NCBI GenBank assembly: GCA_016867455.1
Contig: VGJJ01000001.1
Span: 3,337 to 67,336, forward strand
From: Candidatus Iainarchaeum sp.
GTDB lineage: Archaea; Iainarchaeota; Iainarchaeia; Iainarchaeales; VGJJ01
DNA: 64,000 nt
Reading direction: 5' to 3'
A model generated the notes under the pieces. The model was not told the origin of the DNA. It searched no databases and worked only from the letters and a program-made list of their open reading frames with translations. The translations under genes and the position numbers were made by a program. Shown here piece after piece: positions 3,059-61,936 of the stretch; the first letter of the stretch is position 1; every line of letters starts with the position of its first letter.

Positions 3059-3210
3059 TCATGGATTGGGTTAAATATCCTCTCCCACCCCCTAAAATGA
3101 AAAAATGATGCATACAATCTACAATTGACGTAATTACCCTTGTTGCGCGTCAAAAATAACGATTGTTTTTTATGCGATTTCCAAATGAAGTAAATCATTC
3201 GACCATTTTT

Positions 3211-3215
3211 GGAGG
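3211..3215 (+). promoter_or_regulatory. Shine-Dalgarno-like GGAGG, 8 nt upstream of the ispH ATG
   Basis: The sequence ggaggattttttcATG is seen directly. It supports ATG 3224 as the start rather than the ORF-track start at 3209. Confidence 0.5.
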
Positions 3216-3223
3216 ATTTTTTC

Positions 3224-4237
3224 ATGAAGATTGAACTCGCTCGCGCCGCTGGTTTTTGTTTTGGAGTCAAACGCAGCGTAAAACTTTCTCATGAGACACT
3301 CGACCAGGGTCCCGCATTCTTGTATGGGATGCCCGTGCACAATCAGCGAGTTGTCCAGAAAATCATTGACCACGGCGGAAAACTCGTGGAAGACAATCCC
3401 TACGCCGCGTCCAAAATTTCTCGCTTTACTCATTTGAATTCCATGGATGAAATTCCGGCAGGAAGCACCGTCCTCATGCGTGCGCACGGTGTTACCGTAC
3501 AAGCATTGGAAAAAGCCAAAGAAAAAGAGTTGAAAATCGTCGACACCACCTGCCCATTCGTGACCATGGTTCACAAGACCGCAAAAGTATTGTTTGATGA
3601 AAAATACCAAGTCATTATTGTGGGCGAACATGGTCATCCGGAAGTGGAAGGAATCAAAAGTTATGCCCCCAACGCGATTGTAGTGGAAAATGCGGAAGAA
3701 GCCAGCAAATTATTCCCGCGAAAAACACAATACTACACGAATGATGAACTCATGAAAGCTAAAACCGACGCGGAAGTAGTGGAAAAATTACATTATCCCG
3801 TGTTAACGAAGATTGGAATTGTTTCCCAAACCACCCAATCAAACGACAATGTGCAAGCCGTGGCCATGGCGGTCATGGGTAAAGCTCGTGAAGTAAGAGT
3901 GTACAACACTATTTGCAATGCCATGCATGAAATGCAGCCCGGTGCGGTGCAGCTTTCCACTCAAGTTAATGTCATGCTCATTATTGGGGGAAGAAATAGT
4001 GGAAACACCAAAAGACAGGCCGAATTGTGCGCGCAGCAGACGAAAACACACTGGATTGAATCCGCGGACGAGTTGAAACCCGAATGGTTTACGAATGTAA
4101 AACACGTGGGAATAGGCGCTGGCGCCAGTACACCGGATGAAGACATTGAAGACGTGATTGCGTGGTTGAAAAAATACGACAAGGAAACGAATCACGTTGA
4201 GAGTGAAATCATCCGCCCTGCGTACGTGGTGCATTGA
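3224..4237 (+). CDS. ispH: 4-hydroxy-3-methylbut-2-enyl diphosphate reductase (IspH/LytB)
   Basis: N-terminus MKIELARAAGFCFGVKRSV is the classic LytB block. Conserved Cys residues and ~340 aa length fit. The stop overlaps the next gene. Confidence 0.9.
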   Translation: MKIELARAAGFCFGVKRSVKLSHETLDQGPAFLYGMPVHNQRVVQKIIDHGGKLVEDNPYAASKISRFTHLNSMDEIPAGSTVLMRAHGVTVQALEKAKEKELKIVDTTCPFVTMVHKTAKVLFDEKYQVIIVGEHGHPEVEGIKSYAPNAIVVENAEEASKLFPRKTQYYTNDELMKAKTDAEVVEKLHYPVLTKIGIVSQTTQSNDNVQAVAMAVMGKAREVRVYNTICNAMHEMQPGAVQLSTQVNVMLIIGGRNSGNTKRQAELCAQQTKTHWIESADELKPEWFTNVKHVGIGAGASTPDEDIEDVIAWLKKYDKETNHVESEIIRPAYVVH

Positions 4238-4251
4238 AGAAGGTAAATTCC

Positions 4252-5142
4252 ATGCCTTCCTCGCTCACTCTTTCTTCTCCCGCTAAACTCACGCTGGTAC
4301 TGGATATTATCCGCAAGCGCGAGGATGGTTATCATGAAGTCGAATTAGTGCTGCAGGAATTGGCCATCCACGACACGATAACCATTGAAGCGCTTCCTCA
4401 TTCCAGTGAAATTATTCTCTCATGCACAGACGCAAGCGTTCCCTTGAATGAGAAAAACTCGTGCCACAAAGCAACCATTCTGATGCAAAATGAATTCGCC
4501 AGCCAAAATCCTGGCAAACCTATTCAGGGAGTGAAAATTCATATTGATAAAAAAATTCCTTCCGCGGGAGGATTAGGTGGGGGAAGTTCTAACTCGGCAA
4601 CGGTTTTGAAAGGGTTGAATGAGTTGTGGCAATTGAACTTGTCCAAGAATGTTCTCAAAAATTTGGGGGCGAAGATTGGTTCCGATGAAGTATTTTTGAT
4701 TGAAGGGGGAACGTGCATTGGTTTAGGTCGCGGAGAAATCGTTGAGCCTATTGAAAAATGTCCGCGTCTTGAACTCGCTATTATTACTCCCCCTGTCAAG
4801 GTTCCTGAGAAAAAAAGTGCGTGGGTATATGGTCATTTTGACGTGAACAAAGTTTCCCATCATTATTCGATACACGAAATGAGGAAAGCCATTCGATCGA
4901 ATGATCCTCAAAAAGTGGCCGAAAAAATGGGGAATGTTTTTGAAACACTTGAACTACTGGAGTACGCGGTCGTGTTTGCCCTCATTGAAGGGTTGAAGCA
5001 AATGTCGGGCGTCCGGACGAGTATGCTCGCCGGCGCCGGACCCACCGTGGTATGCGTGTGCGACTCTCAACGGACGGCGAGTCAAATCATTGAACCTTTC
5101 CGCGCGCGCGGGTGGGTGGCATTTACCACACACACGGTTTAG
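4252..5142 (+). CDS. ispE: 4-diphosphocytidyl-2-C-methyl-D-erythritol kinase (IspE, GHMP kinase)
   Basis: N-terminus SPAKLTLVLDI...EDGYHEVELVLQ matches the IspE family (compare E. coli PAKLNLFLYI...DGYH). GHMP ATP-binding loop IPSAGGLGGGSSNSA is present. ATG 4252 is preferred over the TTG at 4234 that overlaps the ispH stop. Confidence 0.85.
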   Translation: MPSSLTLSSPAKLTLVLDIIRKREDGYHEVELVLQELAIHDTITIEALPHSSEIILSCTDASVPLNEKNSCHKATILMQNEFASQNPGKPIQGVKIHIDKKIPSAGGLGGGSSNSATVLKGLNELWQLNLSKNVLKNLGAKIGSDEVFLIEGGTCIGLGRGEIVEPIEKCPRLELAIITPPVKVPEKKSAWVYGHFDVNKVSHHYSIHEMRKAIRSNDPQKVAEKMGNVFETLELLEYAVVFALIEGLKQMSGVRTSMLAGAGPTVVCVCDSQRTASQIIEPFRARGWVAFTTHTV

Positions 5143-11857: not shown

Positions 11858-11928
11858 GCAGGCCGGTAACCTCCGGCCGCGCAGACAGACTACTATCGAG
11901 GGGTCTTCGACCCCTCACACCGGTTTTT
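11858..11928 (+). ncRNA. Two-hairpin sRNA-like element 'A' (GGCCGG-TAACCT-CCGGCC hairpin, GGGGTCTTCGACCCC hairpin, T5 tail)
   Basis: Two perfect hairpins followed by CACACC and TTTTT. It sits in a divergent intergenic region upstream of rpl44e. It is a paralogue of elements at 22555, 22828, 22895 and 23118. Confidence 0.3.
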
Positions 11929-11952
11929 GATCGAACTTTTGGCAAAAGTTCG
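11924..11952. terminator. AT-rich GATC palindrome TTTTTGATCGAACTTTTGGCAAAAGTTCG (family member)
   Basis: Perfect inverted repeat CGAACTTTT / AAAAGTTCG seen directly. It immediately follows the T-tract of element A. Confidence 0.45.
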
Positions 11953-12002
11953 GGTGGCTTTTTAAGTGTTTTCCATGCGTTTTTCATAGTGCGTGAACCC
12001 GT

Positions 12003-12284
12003 ATGAAGATGCCTAAAACCAAGAAATTATACTGTAAGAAGTGTAATTCTCACACCGAACAAAAACTCAAATTGTTTAAATCCGGCCAAGCCCGCGCCAT
12101 GGCAATAGGAACGCGTCGAAATGTTCGAAAGCACAAGAAAGGTTTTGGTGGAAAGGCCAAGTTTGTGATTAAAGTCAAGAAGCAAACTAAGAAACCCGCT
12201 TTCGTAGCCGAATGCCCCACCTGTAAAAGCAAGCGCTACTACGTCATTCCCAAGCGAATGAAAAAAGTAGATATGGGCGCATAA
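12003..12284 (+). CDS. rpl44e: Ribosomal protein L44e (eL42)
   Basis: MKMPKTKKLYCKKCNSHTEQ...CPTCK. Two CxxC zinc-ribbon pairs. Basic ~93 aa protein specific to archaea and eukaryotes. Confidence 0.85.
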   Translation: MKMPKTKKLYCKKCNSHTEQKLKLFKSGQARAMAIGTRRNVRKHKKGFGGKAKFVIKVKKQTKKPAFVAECPTCKSKRYYVIPKRMKKVDMGA

Positions 12285-12480
12285 TCGGGTTTTGATCAAA
12301 CTTCATGGCATCCCAAAAGGTTTGTCATGCCAGCAAACATTGTTTGCTTGGTTCTCAAAAGTTTGATGGACATGGGCGCATAAGGTCGTTTTTTCCCCAG
12401 GCTTTTTGAAAAAGGCTGGTGGGTATGGGCGCATAAAATTAATTTTAGTGGTATTGAAATTCAACACCACGTCAACTTTT

Positions 12481-12993
12481 TCAAATAAATATTTTGTATA
12501 TTCCAATCATTATTCCGTGGAAAAAATCCTTCGAAACGATTTTGATTCGGCCATCCTTAATGTATTGAGGCAAAGCTGCCTCAAATCCCAATTTTTCTCG
12601 GCTTTCTTCGTATGTTGCAGCGTCTAAATCTATTTCCATGGTTGAATTGGAGAGTTCTCCTAATGTGAATGAGCGAACTTCTTCATCTTTTATCACAATA
12701 CCAAATTGTTTGGTGATAGATGGAGTAACTTTAAAGTTCACTTGAATACGCTGATTATTCAATATTGACTTGACGGGCCATGAAAACGATTGAAATCGCT
12801 GAGAGATTTCTATAAACCCATAATCATATTTTTGCACATCAATTAGGTTTCCTTGGCTATCAAACAAATTATCGATACTCGAAGACCATGAAGCCCATTG
12901 CTCGACTTCCTCAGAAGTTAGTGCGTGCACGGCAGTCACACTGGCAACCAAAAATAAACTAACCAAAATTATTCCAAAATACATTTTATCCAT
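12481..12993 (-). CDS. Small secreted protein, paralogue of 5151..5675
   Basis: Signal peptide MDKMYFGIILVSLFLVASVTAVHA. Conserved blocks shared with the 5151..5675 product. Confidence 0.6.
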   Translation of the reverse strand: MDKMYFGIILVSLFLVASVTAVHALTSEEVEQWASWSSSIDNLFDSQGNLIDVQKYDYGFIEISQRFQSFSWPVKSILNNQRIQVNFKVTPSITKQFGIVIKDEEVRSFTLGELSNSTMEIDLDAATYEESREKLGFEAALPQYIKDGRIKIVSKDFFHGIMIGIYKIFI

Positions 12994-13006
12994 ATTTTCA
13001 TCTCCT

Positions 13007-15517
13007 TCATTTTTTCATTTCATTTAATCGTTTTTGTTCAAGGGTAAAATGGTCGATATACGCATTCGCACATACCCTATTGTCAGGCTCGCTTGGAATT
13101 CTCATGCGGCTGCACCACTCTTGAGCCGATGATTCAAGTTGAGGAGCCCCTTCTTCAACTGGTTCTTCCCCTTCCCACGGGTCAATGGGTGGGTTATTGG
13201 GGAAAAAGTATGGAACAATTGGATAATACCAACCACAATCAATTCCCGGGTAGTAATATCCAGTAAATGCTTGGGTTGAGGGAAGCGTGTCGTAATTTCC
13301 GCACTGTTGCGTGTTCAAATTGCATGTTTTGTATGGACATTGACTATCTTGCGTGCACGTAAATAATGGCGGAGCACTACTTGGTGGAATAGTAATCGTC
13401 CCCGAAACACCACCCCAATAATTTCCAACAGGAGAAAATGTATTCGGATAAGACATATACAAATATTCAGTTGAACCCACCCCTCGTATGAGTGGAGCGT
13501 CCTCGTAACATTGACACGTATTCGATGTCGCGTTCCCAATCAATCCTGGTGCGCATTCACACAGATTAGTGGTTGCGTTGCATGTTGAATCTCCATTGAA
13601 TGCCCACGAAAAACCGCACTCATTATCGTACGTGCAAGCCGTATTGTACTTGCAGTGATACTGATTGTAAGACGCTGCAAACGCAGCTTCGTCCCATTGA
13701 TCTTCATACGTGTTTTTTCCCGTATCCGATGCTTGCGGGTTCTGCATATTGGCATAAATATTGTTGGCAAAAAAACCGCCGCCGTAAAGGCCGTCAATTT
13801 TGACGCCTTGTCTGGCATTATTGAATATGTGATTATTTGAAATGCGGGCCACATACTCCCACGGCGTGTTGGGTAAAACATTGATGAAATTCAACTCTAA
13901 ACCAGTTGAACCATTATTGATAATTCTATTTTTTGAAATATCCTCAATACTCATTGGGGTTGAAATAGTTGGATACCCATCATAAAAAAATCCTTGTTGA
14001 GCGTTATTCGAAAAATCATTGCATAAAACGTCTGATAGTGTATTTTGTGCTGTGTTGCTTGCGTAAAAGCCTCTTTCTCCATTGTTATTAACTTGATTCA
14101 AGAATGTATTTCGTGCGATACTGTAATCAAGATGTACGCCGTTTTTTCCATTCGCGGAAATAGTATTCTTGTAGAGGAAACGATAGGCCCCAGAATATCC
14201 TCCAGTTTCTCCAACTAATACTCCTTCTTCGATATTATTTTGGATAGTATTTTCTAGCACATCAGTAGAAAATCCCCCTTCCCGTAAAAATAGTCCAGTT
14301 TTATTATTTGTAATAGTATTTTGTTGAATAACAGTGTACTCTTCAAACTTATTGGTGAATGGTACTGAAGCATAGGCGGGTGTTGCACCCAAGAGAACAC
14401 CTATACCCTGTGTGCCATTCCCAGCCGTAATTATATTTTCTTTAATTAGAGTAGAATGCCAGTATTGCTGTGACAACTGAAAATAAAATACAGAATACCC
14501 TTGTAAAATAATTCCTGCTTTGGCATTGCCGCGAATGGTATTTTTGAGTATTTGAACGCCGCTGTTAAAGTATTCCTGCAAATATCCGTATGGATTATTT
14601 TCAGAACCTGTAAAAATTGCTTGGGCCTGAATACCTGCCGTATTTTTTTCTATCCTGTTTTCAGAAATTTCAGTATCAAGGCCATATGTCTCGATTCCGA
14701 TGCCATTTTCTCGAATAGTAGCGCGAGTAATTTTCTGATTCTTTCCTACAGTTGGGATGCTGCACAGAATGGGCCCTCCATTTTGTCCTGTTGAACAAAC
14801 ACTATTGGGGAAAGTGAAATTGGAAGGATACACTCCTACTAAGATGCCTGTTGAATTTTTTGAAATAATTCCGCCGCTAATTAGACTGTTACTTCCTTGA
14901 AGTTCAAAACCATTCGTAGTATTCTTCACCACATTATCTTGATACAAATTATTCGACGATTGTGGTTCTTCAAAAATTCCCGTTTGCGCTCCATCAATCG
15001 TGTTTTGAATCACGCGCATATTTTTATTCGCTGAGAGTGAAACAGCATTCAAAAATTTTCCTTGAAAGGCGCACTTTTCAATGGACGCACCATCTCCAAT
15101 GAGTTTTACCCCGTCGAAAAGATACGGCGACGCGCCCCCATAAATCAAATTGACGCCGCTCTGACATTTCAACGCGGAATTGGCTGAAACACTGATGGGC
15201 GAGGTTAGCGTGTAGGTTCCCGTGCATAAAACATGTGTTCCATTCACAGTAGTGGGAAGAACATATGTACACGCGGGAGTGGGGGGAGGAGCCGCTACAC
15301 GAGTCCCCGTTGGAGTGGCTGAAGAAATAGATAACTGCGTCACATTTCCCGTGTTCACTAAACTAGAAACAAAAAGAAACGCAAACGCGAACACGAGCAC
15401 GGTCAAAATAGCTCCCTGCATGCGCGTGTCTGCTTTCATGTGGTGAAAAAATCGTTCAAGAATTAAAAGACAGACACCCGCGAAACAAGGCAAAACACCC
15501 CCAATTCCCGCCACCAC
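13007..15517 (-). CDS. Large secreted surface protein with parallel beta-helix repeats and a C-terminal Cys-rich (EGF-like) region
   Basis: N-terminal TM/signal (likely start MKADTRMQGAIL at about 15439). Many N/G/T-rich ~22-aa repeats typical of right-handed beta-helix (NosD/pectate-lyase-like) proteins. C-terminal cluster CKYNTACTYDNECG...CECAPG...CQC. Confidence 0.7.
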   Translation of the reverse strand: MVAGIGGVLPCFAGVCLLILERFFHHMKADTRMQGAILTVLVFAFAFLFVSSLVNTGNVTQLSISSATPTGTRVAAPPPTPACTYVLPTTVNGTHVLCTGTYTLTSPISVSANSALKCQSGVNLIYGGASPYLFDGVKLIGDGASIEKCAFQGKFLNAVSLSANKNMRVIQNTIDGAQTGIFEEPQSSNNLYQDNVVKNTTNGFELQGSNSLISGGIISKNSTGILVGVYPSNFTFPNSVCSTGQNGGPILCSIPTVGKNQKITRATIRENGIGIETYGLDTEISENRIEKNTAGIQAQAIFTGSENNPYGYLQEYFNSGVQILKNTIRGNAKAGIILQGYSVFYFQLSQQYWHSTLIKENIITAGNGTQGIGVLLGATPAYASVPFTNKFEEYTVIQQNTITNNKTGLFLREGGFSTDVLENTIQNNIEEGVLVGETGGYSGAYRFLYKNTISANGKNGVHLDYSIARNTFLNQVNNNGERGFYASNTAQNTLSDVLCNDFSNNAQQGFFYDGYPTISTPMSIEDISKNRIINNGSTGLELNFINVLPNTPWEYVARISNNHIFNNARQGVKIDGLYGGGFFANNIYANMQNPQASDTGKNTYEDQWDEAAFAASYNQYHCKYNTACTYDNECGFSWAFNGDSTCNATTNLCECAPGLIGNATSNTCQCYEDAPLIRGVGSTEYLYMSYPNTFSPVGNYWGGVSGTITIPPSSAPPLFTCTQDSQCPYKTCNLNTQQCGNYDTLPSTQAFTGYYYPGIDCGWYYPIVPYFFPNNPPIDPWEGEEPVEEGAPQLESSAQEWCSRMRIPSEPDNRVCANAYIDHFTLEQKRLNEMKK

Positions 15518-15551
15518 GCCCCTTTTTATTCCCCAAACGCATGCTTAACGC

Positions 15552-16601
15552 ATGACCTCCAAAACGAGTATTTTGTTAATAGTTTCTCAAAATCCGGGGA
15601 TTGATTACCAGGCATTATTGTCCAAGATTGCACCCAATTATGCTAATCTTAATTCCGCCCGCGCGGCTCTTTCCCGTGTCCTCAAAGATGCGGTCTCTTT
15701 TGGAATGGTGGCCAAGCAGAATCACCAGCTCTTTTTGACGGACAAAGGCAGTGCCTCGTTGAAAGTCAAGATGCACGATAAACTGGTGTTAAAACTCAAC
15801 CAATTAATGAATATTCGTTCCGTGGCCAGCAACCCCGATCCATTGGTACAGCATCTTTCTGTTTTACTCGAGCGCGGAAAAAGCGACCCGCGCTTATTTG
15901 ACAACGCCCGGGCGTCCGTCAATTTTTCAGTGGATGACGTGCTAAAAGTCCACGAGGGAGTGAAGCAGAACATTAAGCATTTGGAATACTTGGAGAAAAC
16001 GCTCGAAAATCAATTGTCCTCGTTGCGCGAACTCAATTTTCCCGGAGAAAGAGTCAAACACTTGTCCGCGTTCCACGAACACATTCCTCGATTGATTAAG
16101 GAATCATCCGCGGAAGAAATTCAAGTGGAACATTCCCAAGTGGATTTTTCCACGCAAACTAGCCATTCGCTCGTGCAGGGACTTTCTCCTATTTCCAAGG
16201 GAAGTCGCGCTGCGATTAATGCCCACCATTTGGGGGAGTTAACCACCCGCTTTTCTAATCAAAGTGATTTGGAAAACTTGCGCGTGTACATGGGTTTTTT
16301 TACCCTGGATTATTCCCCGCACCAAGTAAGTATTCGGGGGCCCTCGCAATTATTGGACAAGTTGGAAATAACCAACGACACTCGTTCCAGTGAGAATGTT
16401 AGCAGCACCGCTCCCGTGAGCGAACCAGGAGTGGTGACTAAAAGTAATTCGAGAAGCGAAAAGACAGTAGTCGAGGGAGATTATGCGGTTACTCTCCCAA
16501 CATTTCCCCTGCCGGAAATGCCATTGTATATTTCAGCGAGCGAAAATAAGTATCGCGACAACGTGTTTACGCCCGATGAGAATTCGGAAAAACGATTATG
16601 A
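15552..16601 (+). CDS. Hypothetical protein
   Basis: Long clean ORF with no recognisable catalytic motif. The N-terminal ~60 aa could be a winged-helix DNA-binding fold, which is inference only. Confidence 0.5.
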   Translation: MTSKTSILLIVSQNPGIDYQALLSKIAPNYANLNSARAALSRVLKDAVSFGMVAKQNHQLFLTDKGSASLKVKMHDKLVLKLNQLMNIRSVASNPDPLVQHLSVLLERGKSDPRLFDNARASVNFSVDDVLKVHEGVKQNIKHLEYLEKTLENQLSSLRELNFPGERVKHLSAFHEHIPRLIKESSAEEIQVEHSQVDFSTQTSHSLVQGLSPISKGSRAAINAHHLGELTTRFSNQSDLENLRVYMGFFTLDYSPHQVSIRGPSQLLDKLEITNDTRSSENVSSTAPVSEPGVVTKSNSRSEKTVVEGDYAVTLPTFPLPEMPLYISASENKYRDNVFTPDENSEKRL

Positions 16602-17831
16602 TGTGGCGCCTAATGCGCTCTGCAATTTGAGTTGTGCCGCTGCAAAATTTCCCTGCTGAGCGTCTCCGGATGCGAGGGCGATTGTTTTTTGCATTCCCCT
16701 CAGTTGAGCGTCGTACGCCATCGAATCTGATACTGCTTTCAGCCAAGGAGCTAGCCAGAATGCTCTTCCTGCGTTGAGCGTCCAATATTCCATGTTATCT
16801 TCCACTAGTTTCAATTGATGAGTAATGATTTGATGACGCTTTTCAACGGGCCAATCCATCATCTCACGCAAAACAGATGCTTTGACAATAAAATTTCTCG
16901 CGTAGCGGACGTATATCCATTGCTTCAGCGTGGACAAGCGATAAAGTGCTCCCTTTTCGTTTGAAATTATTTCGCGGCTAATTTCATCATACAATCGTGC
17001 CAATTGTTTTCCTTCCGGAGTGGGAGTATGTTTTTCGAGCAGTTCATAATTTGCTGCCCGCGCTTGAAATGAGTGAGATATTTTTTCCCTATTTTCGCGC
17101 GAAAGTTCTCCGCGCCGAAGTTCACTCATCAAGCGGGTGGCTTCCTCTATTCGCTCAACACCTAATTGTCGGTGCCTCTGGCTCTCGTGCACGGCTAACT
17201 TGACATCGCGCACAATGCGCGGGCGCTGCCGGTTGAGCGCACTCAGACGAATGCCTAAATCATTAAACACGCCCCACAATTGGTTGACGAATGCAGGGCT
17301 GTTTCCTTCTTCTAATAATTCCGCTGCTCGAAGCAGTTTGGCTTGCGCGCCGCGCTTGGATTCTTTTCGCAGCCGCTTTCCCATTCCTCCAGCAATGGTT
17401 GTTAATAGTTCGACTAATTTTTTTCTCGCCGGACCCGCGGGAACGCCGCGCTGAATGAACATGTTGTGCATTTTTTGCACGCGCGTGGCGAGGCTTTCTA
17501 AATTCAAGTATTCGGCTGCCACGTTTTGGGAAATGTGTTTTTGTCTCCGCTCGAGTGTTGAGAAGCCCCATATGGTTGCCTTTCCCTCTTGCATGAGCTG
17601 CCCAAGTTCATGTCCTAATGTTTTGTAGCGCGGCCACTCAATTTTTCCCGCGGGAGAAATACTGACTCCTATTCGTGTAAGAACCATTGGAACAGCCGGC
17701 CGCGATACAATCAATTCTCCCCTTCGATAGGGCAATTCCATTCCGGGTTCGCGCTTAGTAAAACGGAGCGGTCGGCGGGGTGGTTTTCGCCCTCCTTTTC
17801 CGTTGGATGGAGATAGTGCCATTCCTTTCAT
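16596..17831 (-). CDS. Hypothetical protein (Arg/Lys/Glu-rich, helical)
   Basis: Long ORF that converges on and overlaps the stop of 15552..16601 by 6 nt. No motif recognised. Confidence 0.5.
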   Translation of the reverse strand: MKGMALSPSNGKGGRKPPRRPLRFTKREPGMELPYRRGELIVSRPAVPMVLTRIGVSISPAGKIEWPRYKTLGHELGQLMQEGKATIWGFSTLERRQKHISQNVAAEYLNLESLATRVQKMHNMFIQRGVPAGPARKKLVELLTTIAGGMGKRLRKESKRGAQAKLLRAAELLEEGNSPAFVNQLWGVFNDLGIRLSALNRQRPRIVRDVKLAVHESQRHRQLGVERIEEATRLMSELRRGELSRENREKISHSFQARAANYELLEKHTPTPEGKQLARLYDEISREIISNEKGALYRLSTLKQWIYVRYARNFIVKASVLREMMDWPVEKRHQIITHQLKLVEDNMEYWTLNAGRAFWLAPWLKAVSDSMAYDAQLRGMQKTIALASGDAQQGNFAAAQLKLQSALGATS

Positions 17832-17997
17832 TCGTCATCCGTGTTTAAATGGATTCTTCCACGAGGAATAGTATATTGGCCTATCGAGCGCAAGCGAAGA
17901 TAGTCCGTCAACCTTTTAGCAAAAGGTTGATCAAAAGAGTGCCTACCACCGCAACGCGGTTGGTAGTCCGTTAGCGTCAACCGATAATGCGGTTGTT

Positions 17998-18080
17998 GCG
18001 GAGTTGGCAGAGCGGTCAAATGCACTGGTCTCGAAAACCAGGGCCTCACGGCTACGAGAGTTCGAATCCCTCACTCCGCG
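17998..18080 (+). tRNA. tRNA-Ser (anticodon CGA), type II with long variable arm
   Basis: Acceptor GCGGAGT/ACTCCGC. Anticodon stem CTGGT/ACCAG with loop CTCGAAA. Variable arm ~14 nt. T-arm GAGAG-TTCGAAT-CCCTC. Discriminator G. No encoded CCA. Confidence 0.8.
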
Positions 18081-18200
18081 CTTCGCGCCATTATCCATCT
18101 GGCGGGTCGGTATAGAGGTATCGCAGCGCGATACCTCGGCTGAACGTTTCTTTTTGACCGCGCACCACTTTTTCTCACTCAAAGAAAAAGGGGCGCTTCT

Positions 18201-18217
18201 GAATCCCTCACTCCGCG
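18201..18217 (+). repeat. Exact 17-nt copy of the tRNA-Ser 3' end (GAATCCCTCACTCCGCG), 120 nt downstream of the gene
   Basis: Identical to 18064..18080, seen directly. It follows an AT-rich palindrome CTTTTTCTCACTCAAAGAAAAAGG (18168-18191). Confidence 0.7.
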
Positions 18218-18253
18218 TCCAATTTACCATCATTTAATGAGACAAAATCAAAA

Positions 18254-18595
18254 CTAATCGTCTTCTACTTCTATTTTTAGTCCGCCCACCATTTTGGCGA
18301 CGGCGTTATACACTAATGCAACGAGTGCGCCGGAAATGAATCCGGTGACAATTCCTAAAACCAAGAAAAATAACAATCCAATGAATCCCAATTGCTGCGT
18401 TTTCTCTATCAAATCAATGGGAGTGCCGGAGAGTGTTTGCAAGTATCCCGATACAATTCCCGATGTGAGTAAGGAAAGTATTCCCATGAGCAGTCCCATC
18501 ACGAATCCAAAGATGGCATTTACTTTTCCCAGCATGAGGGGGTCGACGTGATGGATGGTTAATCGTTTGCTCGTCATGCGCAACACCGCATTCAT
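18254..18595 (-). CDS. Small membrane protein (3 TM), hypothetical
   Basis: Hydrophobic helices with an acidic C-terminus EVEDD. Confidence 0.45.
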   Translation of the reverse strand: MNAVLRMTSKRLTIHHVDPLMLGKVNAIFGFVMGLLMGILSLLTSGIVSGYLQTLSGTPIDLIEKTQQLGFIGLLFFLVLGIVTGFISGALVALVYNAVAKMVGGLKIEVEDD

Positions 18596-18663
18596 TAGTC
18601 CAAAAATCGGGTGTTAATAAAGGTGAGTGCACGTGGGAAAGAATTTCTGTCGAAAACGACTCA

Positions 18664-18990
18664 TTATGCTTCCGCAAAAGCAGAACATTTTTCTAGTTTT
18701 TTCGTGAGTTGAGTGAAGAGCTTTTTGGCATCCTTTTCCACGTTCAGGTTTTTGAACAAAAATCTCCCGGAGGGGTATAAACTCACGCGTATTCCTTGGA
18801 AATGAAACACTAATACAAAAGCCGTTTTCACATCAAACATTAATCCTTCGTCCGCAAGTTGATTCCCCAATGTTGTGAGATTTAGTTTCAAGTTTGGTTG
18901 CGTGAAAAATTCGTATGAGACGTTGGATTCGCATAGCCTTCCTTGGTAGTATTTTCGAGACATTTTTTCACGACACTGATTATTTTTCAA
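18664..18990 (-). CDS. Small hypothetical protein, 18 nt downstream of the large ATPase gene on the same strand
   Basis: ORF with a basic, helical C-terminus. No motif recognised. Confidence 0.4.
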   Translation of the reverse strand: MKNNQCREKMSRKYYQGRLCESNVSYEFFTQPNLKLNLTTLGNQLADEGLMFDVKTAFVLVFHFQGIRVSLYPSGRFLFKNLNVEKDAKKLFTQLTKKLEKCSAFAEA

Positions 18991-19008
18991 TGAATTTTTG
19001 CAACACGA

Positions 19009-22000
19009 TTATTCATTCAGAATAGTTCCCGTGTATCCGTCCATTTTCACGATGCGGTGTTCGCCCGTTTTCGTGTTAATTAATAATCCTTCAAACAAGG
19101 GTCGATAAATTTCTTTCACGGTATTCACCACTACATTCGGCCACAAATTAGTAAGGAGTGCGTGGAGTTGTTCTTCGGAATATTTTGGAATGGATTTGGC
19201 AATGTTTGTCACGTGCACGAGTTTGAGTGCTTGCAATGAAGATAATTGCTTCTCCCCTCCCGAGAAGGGGATGTCCAAGTCCTTTGCAATGACAAATGTG
19301 GGGAGCGTGTTTTCGTTCAACACGCGAATCATTCCTCGATCACGCAGTTTGACGAGAGAGCGCTTCACGGTCTTTTCATCTAGTCCTGTTTTCTTTTGGA
19401 GGTTGGCAATGGTTTGTCCCCCCATGCGTATCATGCGTAAAACGTGCTGGTCATTCGTGGAGAGTCCGGCCAGTGCTTGCAACCCATTCGATGTCACGAA
19501 TTGGTTGTTCAAGTAATGCAAAAATTCTCCTTTTTCGGCGTCAATGAAGCATTCTCGTACGACATAGGATGTTTTTCCGGTGAATTGCCGGTATTGGACT
19601 TTCCATATGGGAACATACGATAGAGTGACTTCTTTGAGTTGCTCGGCGGGTTTTCCTATTCCTAATAATGTTTTTTTGCTTGCTTTCAAAAATCGTTGAA
19701 CGATTTCCTCACGTGAATACGGAACGGGGAATGCGGACAAGTCCGTGTCCTCATTTATAGAGGGAAGTTCGACGAGTTTAGCGAGGTTTTCAACTTTTTG
19801 CACCGCGGCTAACTCGGCTTCGGGCAATGGTTGAGTGTGCTTATCTTTTTCTTTTTTGGAAATGACTTCCACAAAGTTGGGGGATTTTACGGCTTCTGTT
19901 TTCGGGTCGATGCGTGCTCCGCGTGCTTCCATTTCGTCTAATATACTAGATAGGAGCATTTTTTGTCCGTATTTTTGGTTGAGCATTCCCATGACTTGTT
20001 CAATCGTTTCCTTATCTAACATTCCTTCTTTTTCTAATTTGGACATGAGTAAGGATACACACAGCATGCGGGCTTCTTTTTCGCTCATGGATTTTTTACG
20101 CTCTCCCGTTTCCGCATCCCTTCCTTCGTGTTGGGACATGCGTGGACGAATTTTGAGTACGAATGCGCGGTTGGTTTCCTCGCGGCGGTCTCCCACGAGA
20201 GCCGTTCCCACGGGGAGCGTTTTCAAAAAGTGGGGGTGTTTGTATTTCATGGGAATAATGGTTGGCGTGCGTTTGGTTACGGCTTTAATGTCATCATCAA
20301 AAATGAGTTTGTGCGAGAGAATAATATCCAATTGACTCAAAACACGGGTGTCAATCGCGGATGGTTGCTGCGTGGCAAACACGAGTGAACAGCCTGGTCG
20401 GCGTCCCTGCTTTACGTATTCAACAATTGCTGTCGTCGCAGGAGTAGAAACATTCCCCCCCGGAATGAGGGTGTGGGCTTCATCAATGAACAACCACGTG
20501 GGAGGGATTTCGTTTTCCATGAGACTCTCAACGGATTTTTCCATGGGTTCGTTCGCGGCTTCTTTGCGTGTTTGAATTTTTCGCGCCGCCAAAAGTCTTC
20601 GTGCGAGAATTCCAATAACGAGTGCAGTCACCGTGTCATCCAAAAAACTCGTGTCAATAACCGTGAGTTGTCCCGCGCGGGATATTTCACTTAATGGGGT
20701 TCCTTTGTCAGAGAATATTCCCCATCCCTTGGCGGCTTCAAATCGTGAAACGAGGGCGCGCACACTGTCTGTTTTGTATCCTTTTTCTTTGGAATTTAAT
20801 TCGGTATCATTTTCTAAGCACGCAACGAGTTCGTTGAGCGTGTACGCGTCTTTTTTTCCTTTGATGGTTTCTCCGCCAGTACTGCGATATCCTTTTTCTA
20901 ATTTCTTGAGGGCTTTTTCTAATAGTAATCCCGTGGGAGAGAATCGTTCAATTCCAAATGTTAGACACCAATCCTCACTCGTGAGTAGTGAAGGGGGAAC
21001 GGAGAATAATGCATCATACGTTGAGCGGGGGGTTTCGCTTTTCATTCCTTCGGGGATGAACACGCGCATGTTTTCTAACCCTTGCGGCATGAGTTCATAG
21101 TGCGGGAGTTCTTTCACTTCTTTTTCTTCCTTGTTGGGATAGCGCATGGACCAGAATACTCCCACGGGGTCAACCACTACAATTCCCACGTTCGTGTTGT
21201 GCAATGCTAATTCTTCCGCGAGCACTCCTAACAAGTATGATTTTCCGCTTCCGCGTGAACCGCATGTGAAAATAACATGTGGGTTGAGTGAGTCCACGTA
21301 CAATTTGAAGGCGCGATAACGCTCATCATCTTGTACTTTTCCCACGTACAACGCGCCATCCAATCCTGATTTTTGCATGACGCTGCGTTTTCGTCCAATG
21401 AAAATGGCTTTCTTTTTTTCATCTTCTAATAAGGATAATTTGAGCACGCTCGCGGGTTCCTCTAATGCATGTCCTCTTGTTTTGAGTAAAATGTTTTGTT
21501 TGATTTGTTCACGTGAAACCGCATGCTCATCCACTCCCTCCACGGGTTCAATGGGTGGACGCTCAACGAGAGTATGTTTGGCAGAAACTCCTTCGGAATG
21601 AATTCCTTCTTCTTGGATCCCATGTTCAAACAAAAAATCATCTTCATCCATGGGGGGCATTTCTCCTTCTTCTACGGACGAGGAATGAGCCGAGGCGCGC
21701 GTATCTTCGTGTGAGTGTGTTTCCATTTCTTCTTCGCTTTCACTTGTTGCGCGTCCTTTCTTTTTGCGCAAGGGAATCATGCGTGAATTTTCTTCCGTGT
21801 CGGCAGACAAATCATCGTCCAAATTTGTGCGTTTTTCTTCGTCGTTGTTTGGTGGAGTTTCTTCCCCTTTTTCTTCAGCATCCCCTTCGCGCTCCACATC
21901 TTGCATAATCTTATCAAAGGGGTCCTGGTGCCCTTTTTCCACGTGAACACGGGGCTTTTTTTCTTCACTCATGGGTGGAACTACGTTTTTGGACTTATAA

Positions 22001-22065
22001 TCCTTGTCCACCCCTCCCAACACCCATAAAAACAAGGAATGGGTTCCTTTCTCGTGAAAAAGCAC
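19009..22065 (-). CDS. Very large HerA/FtsK-superfamily (DUF87-type) P-loop ATPase with acidic N-terminal region and C-terminal winged-helix-like domain
   Basis: Walker A FTCGSRGSGKSY. Walker B LFIDEAH. FtsK/HerA/VirB4-type motif LVFATQQPSAID. About 230-aa acidic, low-complexity N-terminus. C-terminal LRMIRMGGQTIANLQKKTGL...LVKLRDRGMI resembles a wHTH fold. Confidence 0.75.
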   Translation of the reverse strand: MLFHEKGTHSLFLWVLGGVDKDYKSKNVVPPMSEEKKPRVHVEKGHQDPFDKIMQDVEREGDAEEKGEETPPNNDEEKRTNLDDDLSADTEENSRMIPLRKKKGRATSESEEEMETHSHEDTRASAHSSSVEEGEMPPMDEDDFLFEHGIQEEGIHSEGVSAKHTLVERPPIEPVEGVDEHAVSREQIKQNILLKTRGHALEEPASVLKLSLLEDEKKKAIFIGRKRSVMQKSGLDGALYVGKVQDDERYRAFKLYVDSLNPHVIFTCGSRGSGKSYLLGVLAEELALHNTNVGIVVVDPVGVFWSMRYPNKEEKEVKELPHYELMPQGLENMRVFIPEGMKSETPRSTYDALFSVPPSLLTSEDWCLTFGIERFSPTGLLLEKALKKLEKGYRSTGGETIKGKKDAYTLNELVACLENDTELNSKEKGYKTDSVRALVSRFEAAKGWGIFSDKGTPLSEISRAGQLTVIDTSFLDDTVTALVIGILARRLLAARKIQTRKEAANEPMEKSVESLMENEIPPTWLFIDEAHTLIPGGNVSTPATTAIVEYVKQGRRPGCSLVFATQQPSAIDTRVLSQLDIILSHKLIFDDDIKAVTKRTPTIIPMKYKHPHFLKTLPVGTALVGDRREETNRAFVLKIRPRMSQHEGRDAETGERKKSMSEKEARMLCVSLLMSKLEKEGMLDKETIEQVMGMLNQKYGQKMLLSSILDEMEARGARIDPKTEAVKSPNFVEVISKKEKDKHTQPLPEAELAAVQKVENLAKLVELPSINEDTDLSAFPVPYSREEIVQRFLKASKKTLLGIGKPAEQLKEVTLSYVPIWKVQYRQFTGKTSYVVRECFIDAEKGEFLHYLNNQFVTSNGLQALAGLSTNDQHVLRMIRMGGQTIANLQKKTGLDEKTVKRSLVKLRDRGMIRVLNENTLPTFVIAKDLDIPFSGGEKQLSSLQALKLVHVTNIAKSIPKYSEEQLHALLTNLWPNVVVNTVKEIYRPLFEGLLINTKTGEHRIVKMDGYTGTILNE

Positions 22066-22140
22066 CCCAGACCCTCATCACAATCCCCTCGTGCGTCCCC
22101 CGCACATGCTCATACGACTGCGCATCACACGCATTCTCCC

Positions 22141-22518
22141 ATGTTTTATGCGTGGGAATTGATTACACTATCCTGCGTCTTCTTTGTTGCCGAAGCATTT
22201 TTTGGACACCCCTTCATTCACGTGGATACGGAAACCGAACACATCCTCGAACTCGCCGTGGAAGGGGCGGAAGTCATTCTCATTGCCGAAGTCGCATTAT
22301 TATTAATCGTCGCACGCGACAAAGTTTCTCATATCAAACGAAATTGGTGCAATATCCTCGCGGTTGCTCCCGCGGGGGGAAGTTTACGCATAGTTACCAT
22401 CATTAAAATTACCTGGCACGCTTTTGAAAAAACACGATTGGGTCACTTTTTCAAACACCCCATTCAATACTCGCGGCGCTGGATACGGGTAAAATTAGGC
22501 CTCCGTCCCCTGGCTTGA
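22141..22518 (+). CDS. Possible small membrane protein (low confidence), divergent from the ATPase gene
   Basis: The only clean ORF in a ~470-nt gap. Two predicted hydrophobic helices. No homology recognised, and it could be non-coding. Confidence 0.25.
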   Translation: MFYAWELITLSCVFFVAEAFFGHPFIHVDTETEHILELAVEGAEVILIAEVALLLIVARDKVSHIKRNWCNILAVAPAGGSLRIVTIIKITWHAFEKTRLGHFFKHPIQYSRRWIRVKLGLRPLA

Positions 22519-22554
22519 ACCGTTTTTAAACGCACCCACTCAAGAATGATATAC

Positions 22555-22625
22555 CAGGCCAGTTTCGGCTGGCCGCAGCGAGAGACTACTTATAAGGGAT
22601 TGCACGCAATCCCTTGAGGTAGGCT
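22555..22625 (+). ncRNA. Two-hairpin sRNA-like element 'B' (GGCCAG-TTTCGG-CTGGCC; AAGGGATTGCACGCAATCCCTT; T4 tail)
   Basis: Same architecture as element A, with compensatory changes in the stems. Confidence 0.3.
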
Positions 22626-22652
22626 TTTGATCAAACTTTTTCAAAAAGTTTG
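22625..22652. terminator. GATC palindrome TTTTGATCAAACTTTTTCAAAAAGTTTG abutting the tRNA-Ala 5' end
   Basis: Perfect 10-bp arms CAAACTTTTT / AAAAAGTTTG. The last G is nucleotide 1 of the tRNA. Confidence 0.45.
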
Positions 22653-22723
22653 GGCAAGTAGCGCAACGGTAGCGCGTCCGCTTCGCATGCGGGAGGCTGG
22701 GGGTTCGAATCCCCCCTTGTCCA
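22652..22723 (+). tRNA. tRNA-Ala (anticodon CGC) with the G3:U70 identity pair
   Basis: Acceptor GGGCAAG/CTTGTCC (position 3 G pairs with T). D-arm GCGC-AACGGTA-GCGC. Anticodon loop TTCGCAT. T-arm GGGGG-TTCGAAT-CCCCC. Discriminator A. No encoded CCA. Confidence 0.85.
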
Positions 22724-22832
22724 TCGCCCATTCCGTAGGGCGAATCCGGTATAGTGGGATAGCAGAGCTATCCCACGTCTTTTGATCAAACTTTTAGAAA
22801 AAGTTTGTTTGATTTCCCCCTTGTCCATGGCC
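22712..22832 (+). repeat. 121-nt direct repeat, copy 1: tRNA-Ala 3' end + conserved two-hairpin trailer + GATC palindrome + second copy of the tRNA 3' end CCCCCTTGTCCA
   Basis: Identical to 23001..23121, compared base by base. Internal hairpins CGCCC-ATTCCGTA-GGGCG and GTGGGATAGC-AGAG-CTATCCCAC. Confidence 0.8.
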
Positions 22833-22870
22833 TGTTTCGGAACCCTTTAGTAAAGGGTTCATCGAAATTT
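22828..22870 (+). ncRNA. Two-hairpin sRNA-like element 'E' (degenerate first hairpin; AACCCTT-TAGTA-AAGGGTT; T4 tail)
   Basis: It follows the second copy of the tRNA-Ala 3' end and is followed by the palindrome at 22868-22895. Confidence 0.25.
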
Positions 22871-22894
22871 TGATCGAACTTTTTTCAAAAGTTC

Positions 22895-22950
22895 GGCAGG
22901 CCGCCTCGAGAAACGGGTTATCGTTTCACGATAACCCCTATTTTTCTTTT
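22895..22950 (+). ncRNA. Two-hairpin sRNA-like element 'C' (GGCAGGCCGCC...; GGGTTATCG-TTTCA-CGATAACCC; T5 tail)
   Basis: Same family. Followed by the palindrome CTTTTCTTTTATCAAAAGAAAAGG (22963-22986). Confidence 0.25.
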
Positions 22951-23000
22951 GACTCCGAATTACTTTTCTTTTATCAAAAGAAAAGGAACTCTTCTGATTT

Positions 23001-23121
23001 CCCCCTTGTCCATCGCCCATTCCGTAGGGCGAATCCGGTATAGTGGGATAGCAGAGCTATCCCACGTCTTTTGATCAAACTTTTAGAAAAAGTTTGTTTG
23101 ATTTCCCCCTTGTCCATGGCC
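23001..23121 (+). repeat. 121-nt direct repeat, copy 2 (lacks the 5' two-thirds of the tRNA)
   Basis: Identical to 22712..22832. Preceded by CTTCTGA, as is the tRNA-Ser 3' copy. Confidence 0.8.
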
Positions 23122-23183
23122 GCTAACCTGCGGCCGTGCGGAAGTTAGGGAAACATGAATGTTCCCTAGACAAACTATTTTTC
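23118..23183 (+). ncRNA. Two-hairpin sRNA-like element 'D' (GGCCGC-TAACCT-GCGGCC; AGGGAAACAT-GAA-TGTTCCCT; ACA; T5 tail)
   Basis: Closest relative of element A: same TAACCT loop, and an ACA triplet after hairpin 2. Confidence 0.3.
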
Positions 23184-23199
23184 GCCAACCATTTTTATA

Positions 23200-23778: not shown

Positions 23779-23832
23779 TTATCTCGACCAAGCAAAATTA
23801 AACTAACTAATTTTCTTGCCGGTTCTGCCAAA

Positions 23833-23861
23833 CAAACTTTTTAGAAAAAGTTTGATCAAAA
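23833..23861. terminator. GATC palindrome in reverse orientation (CAAACTTTTTAGAAAAAGTTTGATCAAAAA) at the 3' ends of convergent genes (secreted protein and ferredoxin)
   Basis: Perfect inverted repeat with flanking T- and A-runs. It lies between convergent genes. Confidence 0.45.
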
Positions 23862-23864
23862 ATA

Positions 23865-24143
23865 CTAAATAATTTTCTTGCCAGTTTTGTCAAACAAGTG
23901 AATCACATTCACGGGGCAAGAGTCCGCGGCTTCCTTGTTGGGAGTATACTGTGCTTGGGCAATGTCTCTTTGTTCACCATCTTCTCCGCTTTCGAGTTTG
24001 ATGTGAATGGATCCCTTCAAGTTGCTCTTTCCATCCACGGGGGACATTTCCCAATAATCCGGTGCCACGGCTGCGCAGGCCCCGCATCCAATACAATTGG
24101 GTCGGTCGTGTTTGATTTGATAGTCGGGCATAGGATATTCCAC
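23865..24143 (-). CDS. Small [4Fe-4S] ferredoxin
   Basis: CIGCGACAAVAP...CPV cluster-binding pattern (CxxCxxC...CP). 92 aa. Confidence 0.7.
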   Translation of the reverse strand: MEYPMPDYQIKHDRPNCIGCGACAAVAPDYWEMSPVDGKSNLKGSIHIKLESGEDGEQRDIAQAQYTPNKEAADSCPVNVIHLFDKTGKKII

Positions 24144-24290: not shown

Positions 24291-24363
24291 AGCCCCATCG
24301 TCTAGTGGTCAAGGATATGGGACTCTGACTCCCAGGACCTGCGTTCGAATCGCAGTGGGGCTA
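24291..24363 (+). tRNA. tRNA-Gln (anticodon CTG)
   Basis: Acceptor AGCCCCA/TGGGGCT. Anticodon stem TGGGA/TCCCA with loop CTCTGAC. T-arm CTGCG-TTCGAAT-CGCAG. Discriminator A. T-tract immediately downstream. Confidence 0.8.
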
Positions 24364-44583: not shown

Positions 44584-44590
44584 CTATTCT

Positions 44591-45703: not shown

Positions 45704-45726
45704 TTTTCACGCAGGAATGGGAAAAT

Positions 45727-61928: not shown

Positions 61929-61936
61929 CTTTGCTC

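Follow-up and report, generated by a model that had tools for sequence, protein, structure and literature searches.

What are the five short hairpin elements that lie near rpl44e and tRNA-Ala in a 64,000-nt stretch of DNA from Candidatus Iainarchaeum sp. (contig VGJJ01000001.1; the whole 64-kb stretch is called the window here)? A first-pass annotation had described elements A (11858), B (22555), C (22828), D (22895) and E (23118) as one family of structural RNA genes, each with two hairpins and an oligo-T terminator. The analysis revealed that the modules of these elements are separable, occur in both orientations, are nested, have recombined into mosaics and are variably present at orthologous sites. 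It was also observed that the sequence next to them is typically present as a direct duplication, with the copies on either side of them. The reading that we favour, with a probability of roughly 0.55, is that the five elements are part of a larger set of modular, non-autonomous and insertion-prone hairpin cassettes, which occupy tRNA edges and gene 3' ends of a Candidatus Diapherotrites (DPANN) genome and are not independent small RNA (sRNA) genes.

Stable hairpins followed by T4-5 were found at all five positions, as annotated. The RNA folding z-scores were -4.4 (A), -5.6 (B), -3.4 (C), -3.4 (D) and -3.5 (E). The window contains 60 perfect stems of at least 7 bp per strand, compared to approximately 33 in dinucleotide-type shuffles, and 20 perfect hairpins with T4 within 15 nt, compared to 6.3 ± 2.9 in shuffles. 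A similar picture was obtained for terminator-like sites (33 observed versus 19.7 ± 4.6). All the stems of 9-10 bp with T4 after them are confined to three small regions, which correspond to the unit loci. The hairpins of the window are therefore not a product of chance.

The architecture proposed for the five elements was recovered only in part. A first hairpin of the GGCC..GGCC type, followed by a second one, is present in A, B and E and is missing in C and D. Element C retains only the 5' arm of the first hairpin (GGCCTGTTTCGG), which is the same as the start of B at 11 of 12 nt (92%), while element D begins with GGCCGC like E, also without a partner arm. Since each of them has only the 5' start of a first hairpin, C and D are, as judged from their letters, mosaics in which the start of one unit type is fused to another hairpin. 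The motif G(C/T)GC(A/G)G was located in A (GCGCAG) and E (GTGCGG), B showing GCAGCG at that place, and the loop TAACCT that had been assigned to A and D belongs in fact to A and E (23118, the fifth element and not the fourth). Moreover, at least 12 units of such kind were counted in the window. Those that had been overlooked lie after tRNA-Ala (two), on both sides of tRNA-Ser, after rpl44e (two) and at 23833-23862, and the gene-end duplications around the units had also escaped attention. The earlier observation is thus partly confirmed, being real, yet described too narrowly and in part inaccurately.

Two kinds of modules make up the units. The double-hairpin (DH) module consists of one or two GC-rich perfect hairpins (hp1 and hp2) with a conserved linker, ..CGGAAGTTAG-GG or CGGTATAG. 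The P module, of about 28 nt, is formed by T4-8, GATC and an A/T-rich hairpin C-R-A-M-C-T4-7 / A4-6-G-K-T-Y-G, as in TTTTGATCAAACTTTTTCAAAAAGTTTG, and most of the window units end in it. The string GATCRAACTTTT occurs 8 times in the window, versus 1.7 expected. A variant of P, named Q (TTTTTGAC..ACTTTTCT..AAAGAAAAGG..CTTC), was found after D and after the tRNA-Ser trailer. The structure can be nested: the loop of P carries hairpin cargo in the rpl44e unit of the window, which has a homologue in the related locus L139, and also in L143, where the loop holds a hairpin homologous to element C plus a nested P-like palindrome.

At every site of the window where a unit adjoins a gene, the gene's end reappears beyond the unit. 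The 3' end of tRNA-Ala (CCCCCTTGTCCA) is present four times (22712, 22816, 23001 and 23105), the 3' end of tRNA-Ser (GAATCCCTCACTCCGCG) twice (18064 and 18201) and the end of rpl44e, including its stop codon (ATGGGCGCATAA), three times (12273, 12372 and 12425). On the minus strand, the last 30 nt of a ferredoxin-like gene (gene end 23865-23894) have an imperfect copy at 23803-23832 (26/30 identical). The duplicated copies in the window run precisely up to the discriminator base or stop codon, and the tRNA copies start in the T-loop. The tRNA repeats measure 17 nt for tRNA-Ser, 12 perfect nt (20 with mismatches) for tRNA-Ala and 17 nt at locus L010. The intervals between gene-end copies are 30-185 nt long and non-coding. 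The tRNA-Ala repeats, which had been taken as the surroundings of the elements, are duplications that arose around the units and not a pre-existing scaffold.

Three other interpretations of the repeats were rejected. The duplicated tRNA ends carry no CCA, which rules out a cDNA of mature tRNA as their source. The rpl44e repeats could not be regarded as translated sequence, the first repeat being in frame and the second one, like those of L127, out of frame. The pair of TTTTTAAG boxes flanking A is not a target duplication, because both are TATA boxes conserved in all relatives.

A short-read contig with the flanking gene stops within the repeats, at 22741. Contigs of the same population with identical flanking proteins turned out to be 99.98-100% identical to the window. 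For this reason homologues in relatives were used, and orthologous loci were fetched via homologues of the 264-amino acid rpl44e neighbour and of a HerA-like protein. The 3' flank of rpl44e was found to be empty in L131 and L143. In L129 it contains P alone with a degenerate gene-end copy, in L126 a double hairpin between two gene-end copies, without P, and in L137 a double hairpin, also without P, with the second gene-end copy partly retained. In L127 the gene end occurs three times, with a double hairpin between the first and second copies and P between the second and third, and L139 shows a series of the same type, extended by another P, by one P that carries cargo and by additional gene-end copies. 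The flank is filled differently also in L141, where a HicA toxin-like gene (3119-3337) adjoins the rpl44e hairpin region. Five differences, all synonymous, separate the second rpl44e-end copy of L139 (2185-2320, minus strand) from its own gene. The segment comprising hp1, linker and copy is approximately 10% diverged between L127 and L139, below the synonymous sites of the gene.

The spacer upstream of rpl44e behaves similarly. Element A sits between two divergent TATA boxes, those of rpl44e and its neighbour, which are kept in all relatives, and the content of this spacer differs in every relative. At the site of the P that follows A, a P-like sequence or a right-arm remnant (..AAAAGGTTG) was found in L127, L129, L139 and L143. 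Upstream of tRNA-Ser, the promoter CGTGTTTAAATGG stands ~30 nt from the tRNA in L141 and ~45 nt from it in L129; in the window the distance is ~150 nt, the additional ~120 nt being hairpin modules placed just before the tRNA +1, in a minus-strand block whose orientation avoids long T-runs. The CGTGTTTAAATGG box (17841-17852 in the window, conserved also in L129 and L141) is the only TATA-like one between tRNA-Ser and a protein gene that is divergent and apparently leaderless, and it may serve both directions. More distant relatives (L135 and L134) have plain tRNA-Ala and tRNA-Ser genes, without units. A GC-richer relative, L133, displays a hairpin array, a P-like palindrome that abuts tRNA-Ala and a trailer of two hairpins. 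At L133 1540-1840 (minus strand) at least six different perfect GC-rich hairpins stand in a row upstream of tRNA-Ala, and the row ends in the P-like palindrome (AGGGCTTTTGTAAAAAGCCCT) that abuts the tRNA +1.

The DH units behave as one family. In L127, L137 and L139 the units that follow rpl44e can be aligned with element E of the window when read on the opposite strand (antisense). Their hp1 reads CGCCGG-TCACCN-CCGGCG, versus GGCCGC-TAACCT-GCGGCC in E, their linker is GTACGGAAGTTAG, versus GTGCGGAAGTTAG in E, and their hp2 differs in sequence with the pairing kept. The 18-nt hp1 of the L141 unit is identical to that of the window tRNA-Ala trailer. A covariance model was built from six units, restricted to hp1 and the outer pairs of hp2 because the MAFFT alignment of the second hairpin was not structural. 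The model matched copies outside its training set, namely L141 285-340 (E=5e-9), which is the 3' trailer of tRNA-Ser(CGA) squeezed against the stop codon of a convergent gene, L126 385-436 (E=3e-4) and hp1 of element A. In the model-fitted alignment 93% of the cells pair and 6 of 10 pairs are changed on both sides; none of 500 shuffles and no slid register approached the observed pairing, the alignment itself leaning towards the model. DH homologues with compensatory stem changes were found at different loci of related genomes and in both orientations relative to the neighbouring genes, and the annotated idea of a conserved structured family, with stems that vary and pairing that is retained, was supported by this covariance-model check. 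Elements are not always fused to the palindrome, since E and the homologues in L126, L127, L137 and L141 are not joined to it. In a small sample, the combinations CCG/CGG, CUG/CAG and UUCG/CGAA hint at a pseudoknot that the hp1 loop and the linker may form by covarying bases.

The P module was scanned for as an exact pattern, in one genome per species. It was found in more than 119 genome contigs of archaea and bacteria, cultured isolates included. Among the matches listed, the archaea with P were Methanosarcinales, Methanobacteriales, Methanocellales, Methanomicrobiales, Methanophagales, Micrarchaeota, Woesearchaeota, Altiarchaeota, Hydrothermarchaeota and Halobacteria, and the bacteria were Oscillospiraceae, other Clostridia, Aminicenantes and Cloacimonadota. 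Between Methanosarcina and Micrarchaeota on one side and Clostridia and Aminicenantes on the other, the sequence of the module is almost the same. The part TTTTGATC, present on one side only, is invariant, and the arms are complementary in 159 of the 159 copies among the matches listed (117 AA/TT, 20 GC/GC, 13 AC/GT and 9 GA/TC). The pattern permits 16 arm combinations and all copies use the four complementary ones, showing that the hairpin is constrained. A virus or plasmid origin was rejected, as P is near-absent from viral contigs (3 of 2.9 million) and a Clostridial copy has no match in PLSDB. The module is not described in Rfam or in the papers searched; a literature search with the sequence string retrieved unrelated primer matches only, and concept searches retrieved analogies and no description of the P motif.

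Duplications accompany P in other archaea too. Flanking direct repeats of 13-50 nt that outscore all 62 displaced controls were found for 29 of 65 archaeal copies among the matches listed. The downstream repeat mostly begins at the right arm of P, and mismatches are concentrated at that junction. A position inside a tRNA gene, or within 150 nt of one, was recorded for 19 of 69 archaeal copies, and seven of these 19 lie inside tRNA introns, mostly at the 5' intron edge and antisense (both counts among the matches listed). On the 5' side of a tRNA the duplicated piece starts just outside +1 and reaches the D-loop (positions 15-17), and on the 3' side of the tRNA, for archaeal copies, it runs from the T-loop to the discriminator. 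Tandem arrays of a duplicated segment plus P were detected, with a period of 83 nt in Methanosarcina and of 68 nt in Altiarchaeales. The smallest inserts consist of nothing but P (~30 nt, with a linker of 0-6 nt), as observed at L010, L071, L129 and window position 23833, which are independent loci and phyla.

Intronic copies were located at L014 2353-2476, L019 6056-6170, L040 2602-2769, L046 690-814, L079 5800-5929 and L110 6029-6255, their hosts being Methanocellales, Micrarchaeota and Altiarchaeota. In five of these six P is 0-4 nt from the 5' splice site and antisense to the tRNA, and the introns of L014, L019 and L046 would be ordinary ones of 15-22 nt without it. Arrays were seen at L062 3919-4280 (minus strand), L076 1571-1719 and L071 3668-3769. 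Methanosarcina sp. MSH10X1 has five identical 83-nt periods, and in an Altiarchaeales metagenome-assembled genome (MAG) the 68-nt periods lie beside an intron-containing tRNA.

In bacteria P is the core of longer repeats, with flanking repeats in 8 of 72 copies and tRNA association in 0 of 82 among the matches listed. The Aminicenantes MAG CSMAG_1899 has at least 20 copies of a ~135-nt repeat with P as core (..CCCCGTGCGCACGGGGAGGCGATAAGCGGCTTCGCCGC..GAGCGCTTTTGATT.. P GCCCCCGGCAGGGCCGCCGGAGGC), at loci L015, L020, L028, L042, L049, L051, L058, L060, L066, L092, L097, L098 and L102. The Clostridia show a different conserved right flank (GGGGCAGAGCCCC..TCGCGCCCGCAGGCGCGAAAC). A full-length transposon bounded by two P was considered at L074 and rejected, as the interval contains ordinary metabolic genes; pairs of P at other loci enclose ordinary host genes as well.

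The cassette reading would imply the following sequence of events. The elements, being non-autonomous, would spread via a process that duplicates a variable stretch of the target (12-50 nt), driven by some trans-acting enzyme or by replication template switching at the hairpins. Purifying selection would keep only the insertions that leave one intact gene copy; an insertion starting inside a gene would survive only if the duplicated stretch reaches the gene end. The exact ending of the duplications at the discriminator base or the stop codon could be attributed to this selection. If short duplications are the commonest, survivors would accumulate at the minimum length. The cassettes would then be transcribed within pre-tRNA leaders, trailers and mRNA 3' ends, where the hairpin with its oligo-T plausibly acts as a terminator or 3'-end protector. 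A broader proposal, which we regard as tentative and rather doubtful, is that P is a minimal insertion element of Archaea and Bacteria. Archaeal P would prefer DNA hairpin loops (the D-, anticodon- and T-loops of tRNAs and its own loop), would carry or recruit GC-rich cargo and, through a new enzyme or replication template switching, would make duplications that vary in length, thereby enlarging tRNA introns and building leaders, trailers and gene-end repeats.

Several observations weigh against insertion-prone cassettes. No transposase, integrase, reverse transcriptase or Cas1 was detected among the 57 open reading frames (ORFs), in a search limited to the 64-kb window. With no such enzyme there and no autonomous partner found, the mechanism of mobility is not demonstrated. 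Duplication lengths of 12-50 nt are unlike those of any classical transposase. No polymorphism was seen within the population, all of whose contigs are identical. The DH unit after rpl44e is kept at one site in four lineages, some copies being old, and the second gene-end copy of L139 matches, at 21 of 21 positions, the gene end found in the lineages of the window and L129. The conserved unit and the L139 copy would point to constraint or lateral transfer and not to neutral debris. With regard to the upstream gene, 23 of 72 archaeal copies of P among the matches listed are co-directional and 19 opposed. Because there is no orientation bias relative to the flanking protein genes across archaea, a general terminator role of P is not demonstrated. 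Finally, sense-oriented P abuts the tRNA +1 in three or four cases, which a promoter-like or leader role fits as well.

Alternatively, the repeats could be decayed attachment (att) scars. Elements with tyrosine integrases would have integrated time and again at the 3' ends of tRNAs and genes (tandem accretion) and would later have been deleted, with att repeats and short arm sequences left behind. This explanation is unlikely. Williams 2002 reportedly presents direct repeats of 17-20 nt, from the T-loop to the 3' end, as the textbook signature of integrase sites in tRNA genes, and repeats from the T-loop to the tRNA 3' end are indeed present at tRNA-Ser, tRNA-Ala and L010. In addition, the copy adjacent to P shows imperfections on the side that faces P, as attP-derived arms should, repeated tRNA ends form arrays, and the second gene-end copy in L139 is donor-like. 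However, inserts go down to P alone at many independent loci and phyla, the window holds no integrase, and its gene-end copies are separated by non-coding intervals of 30-185 nt only. Furthermore, the same module families are found at tRNA-Ala, tRNA-Ser, rpl44e and an SMC gene end, different targets for which a single att specificity is inadequate, and duplications occur at tRNA 5' ends too.

It is also quite unlikely that the elements are independent sRNA genes, each with its own oligo-T terminator, as the first-pass annotation held. Their structure is conserved with compensatory changes, a pseudoknot between the hp1 loop and the linker is possible, and T4-5 was found within 3-12 nt of hp2 in all five elements, as expected of archaeal sRNA genes. 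P might in that case be a compact promoter, with the T-run/GATCAAA as a TATA-like box ~25 nt upstream. The centre of the T-run lies 24-27 nt before the end of P, and the tRNA +1 or the duplicated segment starts exactly at the P end in the window (tRNA-Ala), L096 and L019. The same geometry was observed at the P-like palindrome in L133. Though this geometry is suggestive of a promoter, P is unlike the real promoters of the genome (TTTTTAAG, TTTATAA or TTTAAAT), and a reading of the sequences found no TATA-like box at about -26 for A, C, D and E. Of the five elements only B has an upstream TATA-like box (GTTTTTAAACG, at 22522-22532, ~30 nt away), which could equally serve the tRNA-Ala precursor.

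The arrangement of the units does not favour independent sRNA genes either. They are placed as tRNA 5' leader, tRNA 3' trailer or mRNA 3' flank, in either orientation, and homologues occur in both orientations and also wedged between convergent genes. The stems are almost wholly Watson-Crick, with nearly no G.U pairs, there is no strand asymmetry, and neither strand folds consistently better; an assignment of the functional strand from G.U pairs was attempted and found not decisive. P occurs also within tRNA introns and in bacteria. The Rfam search retrieved only tRNAs and noise (gathering score on the window and 16 other loci, E<=5 on two main regions). The H/ACA-like guide that had been suggested from an ACA triplet could not be sustained: the perfect stems have no internal loop that might form a pseudouridylation pocket, no K-turn was found, no Rfam H/ACA match appeared at E<=5, and the ACA is present in only two units and unconserved in homologues. 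The stated lack of C/D boxes held, no C (RUGAUGA) or D (CUGA) box being seen in the element sequences and no Rfam match obtained. Independent sRNA genes or H/ACA guides are thus not supported.

A third explanation, which is very unlikely, considers terminator or processing structures that evolved in place, the repeats being due to slippage or unequal crossing-over without mobility. The enrichment of hairpin plus T-run sites fits it, as does the fact that most of the window units follow a co-directional gene. It could also account for the local duplication of 126 nt (98% identical) within the tRNA-Ala array and for the identical tandem arrays (segment plus P) of Methanosarcina and Altiarchaeales. 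Nevertheless, the intervals between gene-end copies hold different, unrelated units and are therefore not diverged tandem copies. In addition, homologous units were found at non-orthologous loci of other genomes, and P is near-identical across phyla and domains.

The least probable of the explanations is an RNA-mediated spread, in which P/DH transcripts would be retroposed at pre-tRNA processing sites (5' end, intron site, 3' end): it is consistent with duplications of variable length, as in target-primed reverse transcription, with one constant junction (the right arm of P) and one variable, with T-runs of 4-9 nt and with insertions at the tRNA +1, the discriminator base and the 5' intron edge, yet the duplicated tRNA ends have no CCA, the window encodes no reverse transcriptase, the stems are perfect on both strands, and selection alone could explain the positional regularities.

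Several known systems resemble the cassettes in part. Mitochondrial hairpin elements were reportedly described by Paquin et al. 2000 as small invasive units. The repetitive and double-hairpin elements of mitochondria (Allomyces, sponges, yeast GC clusters) are short non-coding units of one or two hairpins that invade spacers, differ between close relatives and spread singly or in blocks, with no identified enzyme (PMC2800124). The cassettes are alike in being short hairpin units at tolerant sites of a compact genome. The mitochondrial elements, however, are organellar and have neither a module of T-run, GATC and hairpin, nor systematic gene-end duplication, nor an association with tRNA introns.

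The REP/BIME/REPIN families are extragenic palindromes with an invariant 5' motif and covarying arms, present in many copies, often at gene 3' ends, recognised as hairpins and mobilised by RAYT proteins (IS200/IS605-like). P is comparable, with its invariant TTTTGATC 5' of a hairpin with covarying arms. In contrast, REP sequences are species-specific and make no target duplication, whereas P is near-identical across domains and is accompanied by duplications of 12-50 nt. No RAYT-like gene was seen among the ORFs of the window, a search limited to 64 kb of the genome. The cassettes also share with MITEs (miniature inverted-repeat transposable elements) that they are small, non-autonomous, multi-copy, flanked by direct repeats and nested. 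They differ in their long variable duplications and in that no parent insertion sequence was found. As to terminal inverted repeats, the only candidates are the hairpin arms: those of P are inverted repeats able to enclose cargo, TTTTGATC is one-sided, and DH has no terminal inverted repeats. The flanking repeats of 13-50 nt do not have the fixed length of a MITE target-site duplication, and MITE censuses report taxon-specific families (PMC11602168).

Integrative elements that target tRNA genes, and casposons, insert at tRNA or gene 3' ends, leave a direct repeat of the last 14-20 nt and form tandem arrays (PMC6614799). The window units resemble them in their position at tRNA and gene 3' ends with gene-end repeats and in their arrays. 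They differ in that the inserts are 30-110 nt, non-coding and without integrase or Cas1, the repeat length is not fixed, and tRNA 5' ends are also affected. The likeness to archaeal oligo-T terminators lies in the T4-8 directly after genes or hairpins; the window units are mostly co-directional with the upstream gene, and P across archaea has no orientation bias. Those terminators need no hairpin, though, and the GATC-hairpin and the gene-end duplications belong to no described terminator.

Taken together, the data suggest a broader phenomenon, undescribed in Rfam or the literature searched, in which tRNA edges are remodelled by hairpin cassettes whose core motif is shared across domains. If mobile, the cassettes would be very small elements, enzyme-less or mobilised in trans, that reshape tRNA edges and the 3' ends of genes in DPANN genomes, which are streamlined and expected to contain little selfish DNA. 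They would also be a sequence source for extra tRNA-intron material in archaea, for structured leaders and trailers and for tRNA-end fragments, which are usually blamed on integrases. P offers a testable handle, being near-identical across domains with arms that are always complementary; Methanosarcina is genetically tractable and has published 3'-end maps. For annotation purposes, such units should not be named sRNA genes without transcript evidence, and partial tRNA ends should not be taken by default as pseudo-tRNAs or prophage scars.

The units of the window are distributed as follows. Unit A (11858..11928, plus strand) is a DH that ends in T5, with hp1 at 11861-11878 (GGCCGG-TAACCT-CCGGCC), matched by the covariance model with E=2e-3, and hp2 at 11898-11916. 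It is followed by P (TTTTTGATCGAACTTTTGGCAAAAGTTCG) at 11924..11952 (plus strand). The 3' flank of rpl44e (12273..12436, plus strand) comprises the three gene-end copies with two units between them. One unit (span 12285-12371) is a P at 12290-12369 with two hairpins in its loop (cargo 12304-12351), and the other (span 12384-12424) is a P-like palindrome at 12389-12419. The block between the tRNA-Ser promoter and the tRNA +1 (17881..17995, minus strand) contains a hairpin (17881-17903), P (17908-17936) and a DH (hp2 17943-17966, hp1 17978-17995). In the tRNA-Ser 3' region (18064..18217, plus strand) the tRNA end (18064-18080) is followed by the DH trailer (hp1 18084-18106, hp2 18115-18137), a weak match of the covariance model (E=0.3), by Q (18147-18199) and by the duplicated tRNA end (18201-18217).

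Unit B with its P occupies 22554..22652 (plus strand), with hp1 at 22557-22574, hp2 at 22594-22615, T4 and P at 22625-22652, whose last G is G1 of tRNA-Ala. The tRNA-Ala 3'-end array (22712..23116, plus strand) holds the four gene-end copies with units between them. DH plus P was found at 22724-22807 and 23013-23096, the units 22724-22783 and 23013-23072 being identical, and C with P (22828-22895) is followed by D with Q (22896-22994). Unit E (23116..23184, plus strand) is a DH with T5 and without P, in which hp1 (23118-23135), the linker and hp2 (23146-23168) reach a covariance-model score of 55 bits. The P after the ferredoxin-like gene (23833-23862, minus strand) lies within 23803..23894.

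The window has 45.6% G+C and a high coding density. Three tRNA genes were identified, tRNA-Ser (17998-18080), tRNA-Ala (22652-22723) and tRNA-Gln (24291-24363), and beyond them no Rfam family reached the gathering score in the 64 kb. Genes of a bacterial-type methylerythritol phosphate/deoxyxylulose phosphate (MEP/DOXP) pathway (Dxr, IspH/LytB and a GHMP kinase) are located at 1865-5142; in a DPANN archaeon the mevalonate route is expected rather than this one. Positions 44584-45726 (plus strand) and 61202-61936 (minus strand) have coding-like sequence and no called ORF in the simple gene map, and may be frameshifted genes or genes with unusual starts. The region 35600-63800 is a large island of glycosyltransferases, sugar epimerases/dehydratases and methyltransferases, which includes three B12-binding radical SAM proteins (40937-42391, 47618-49249 and 58000-59529).

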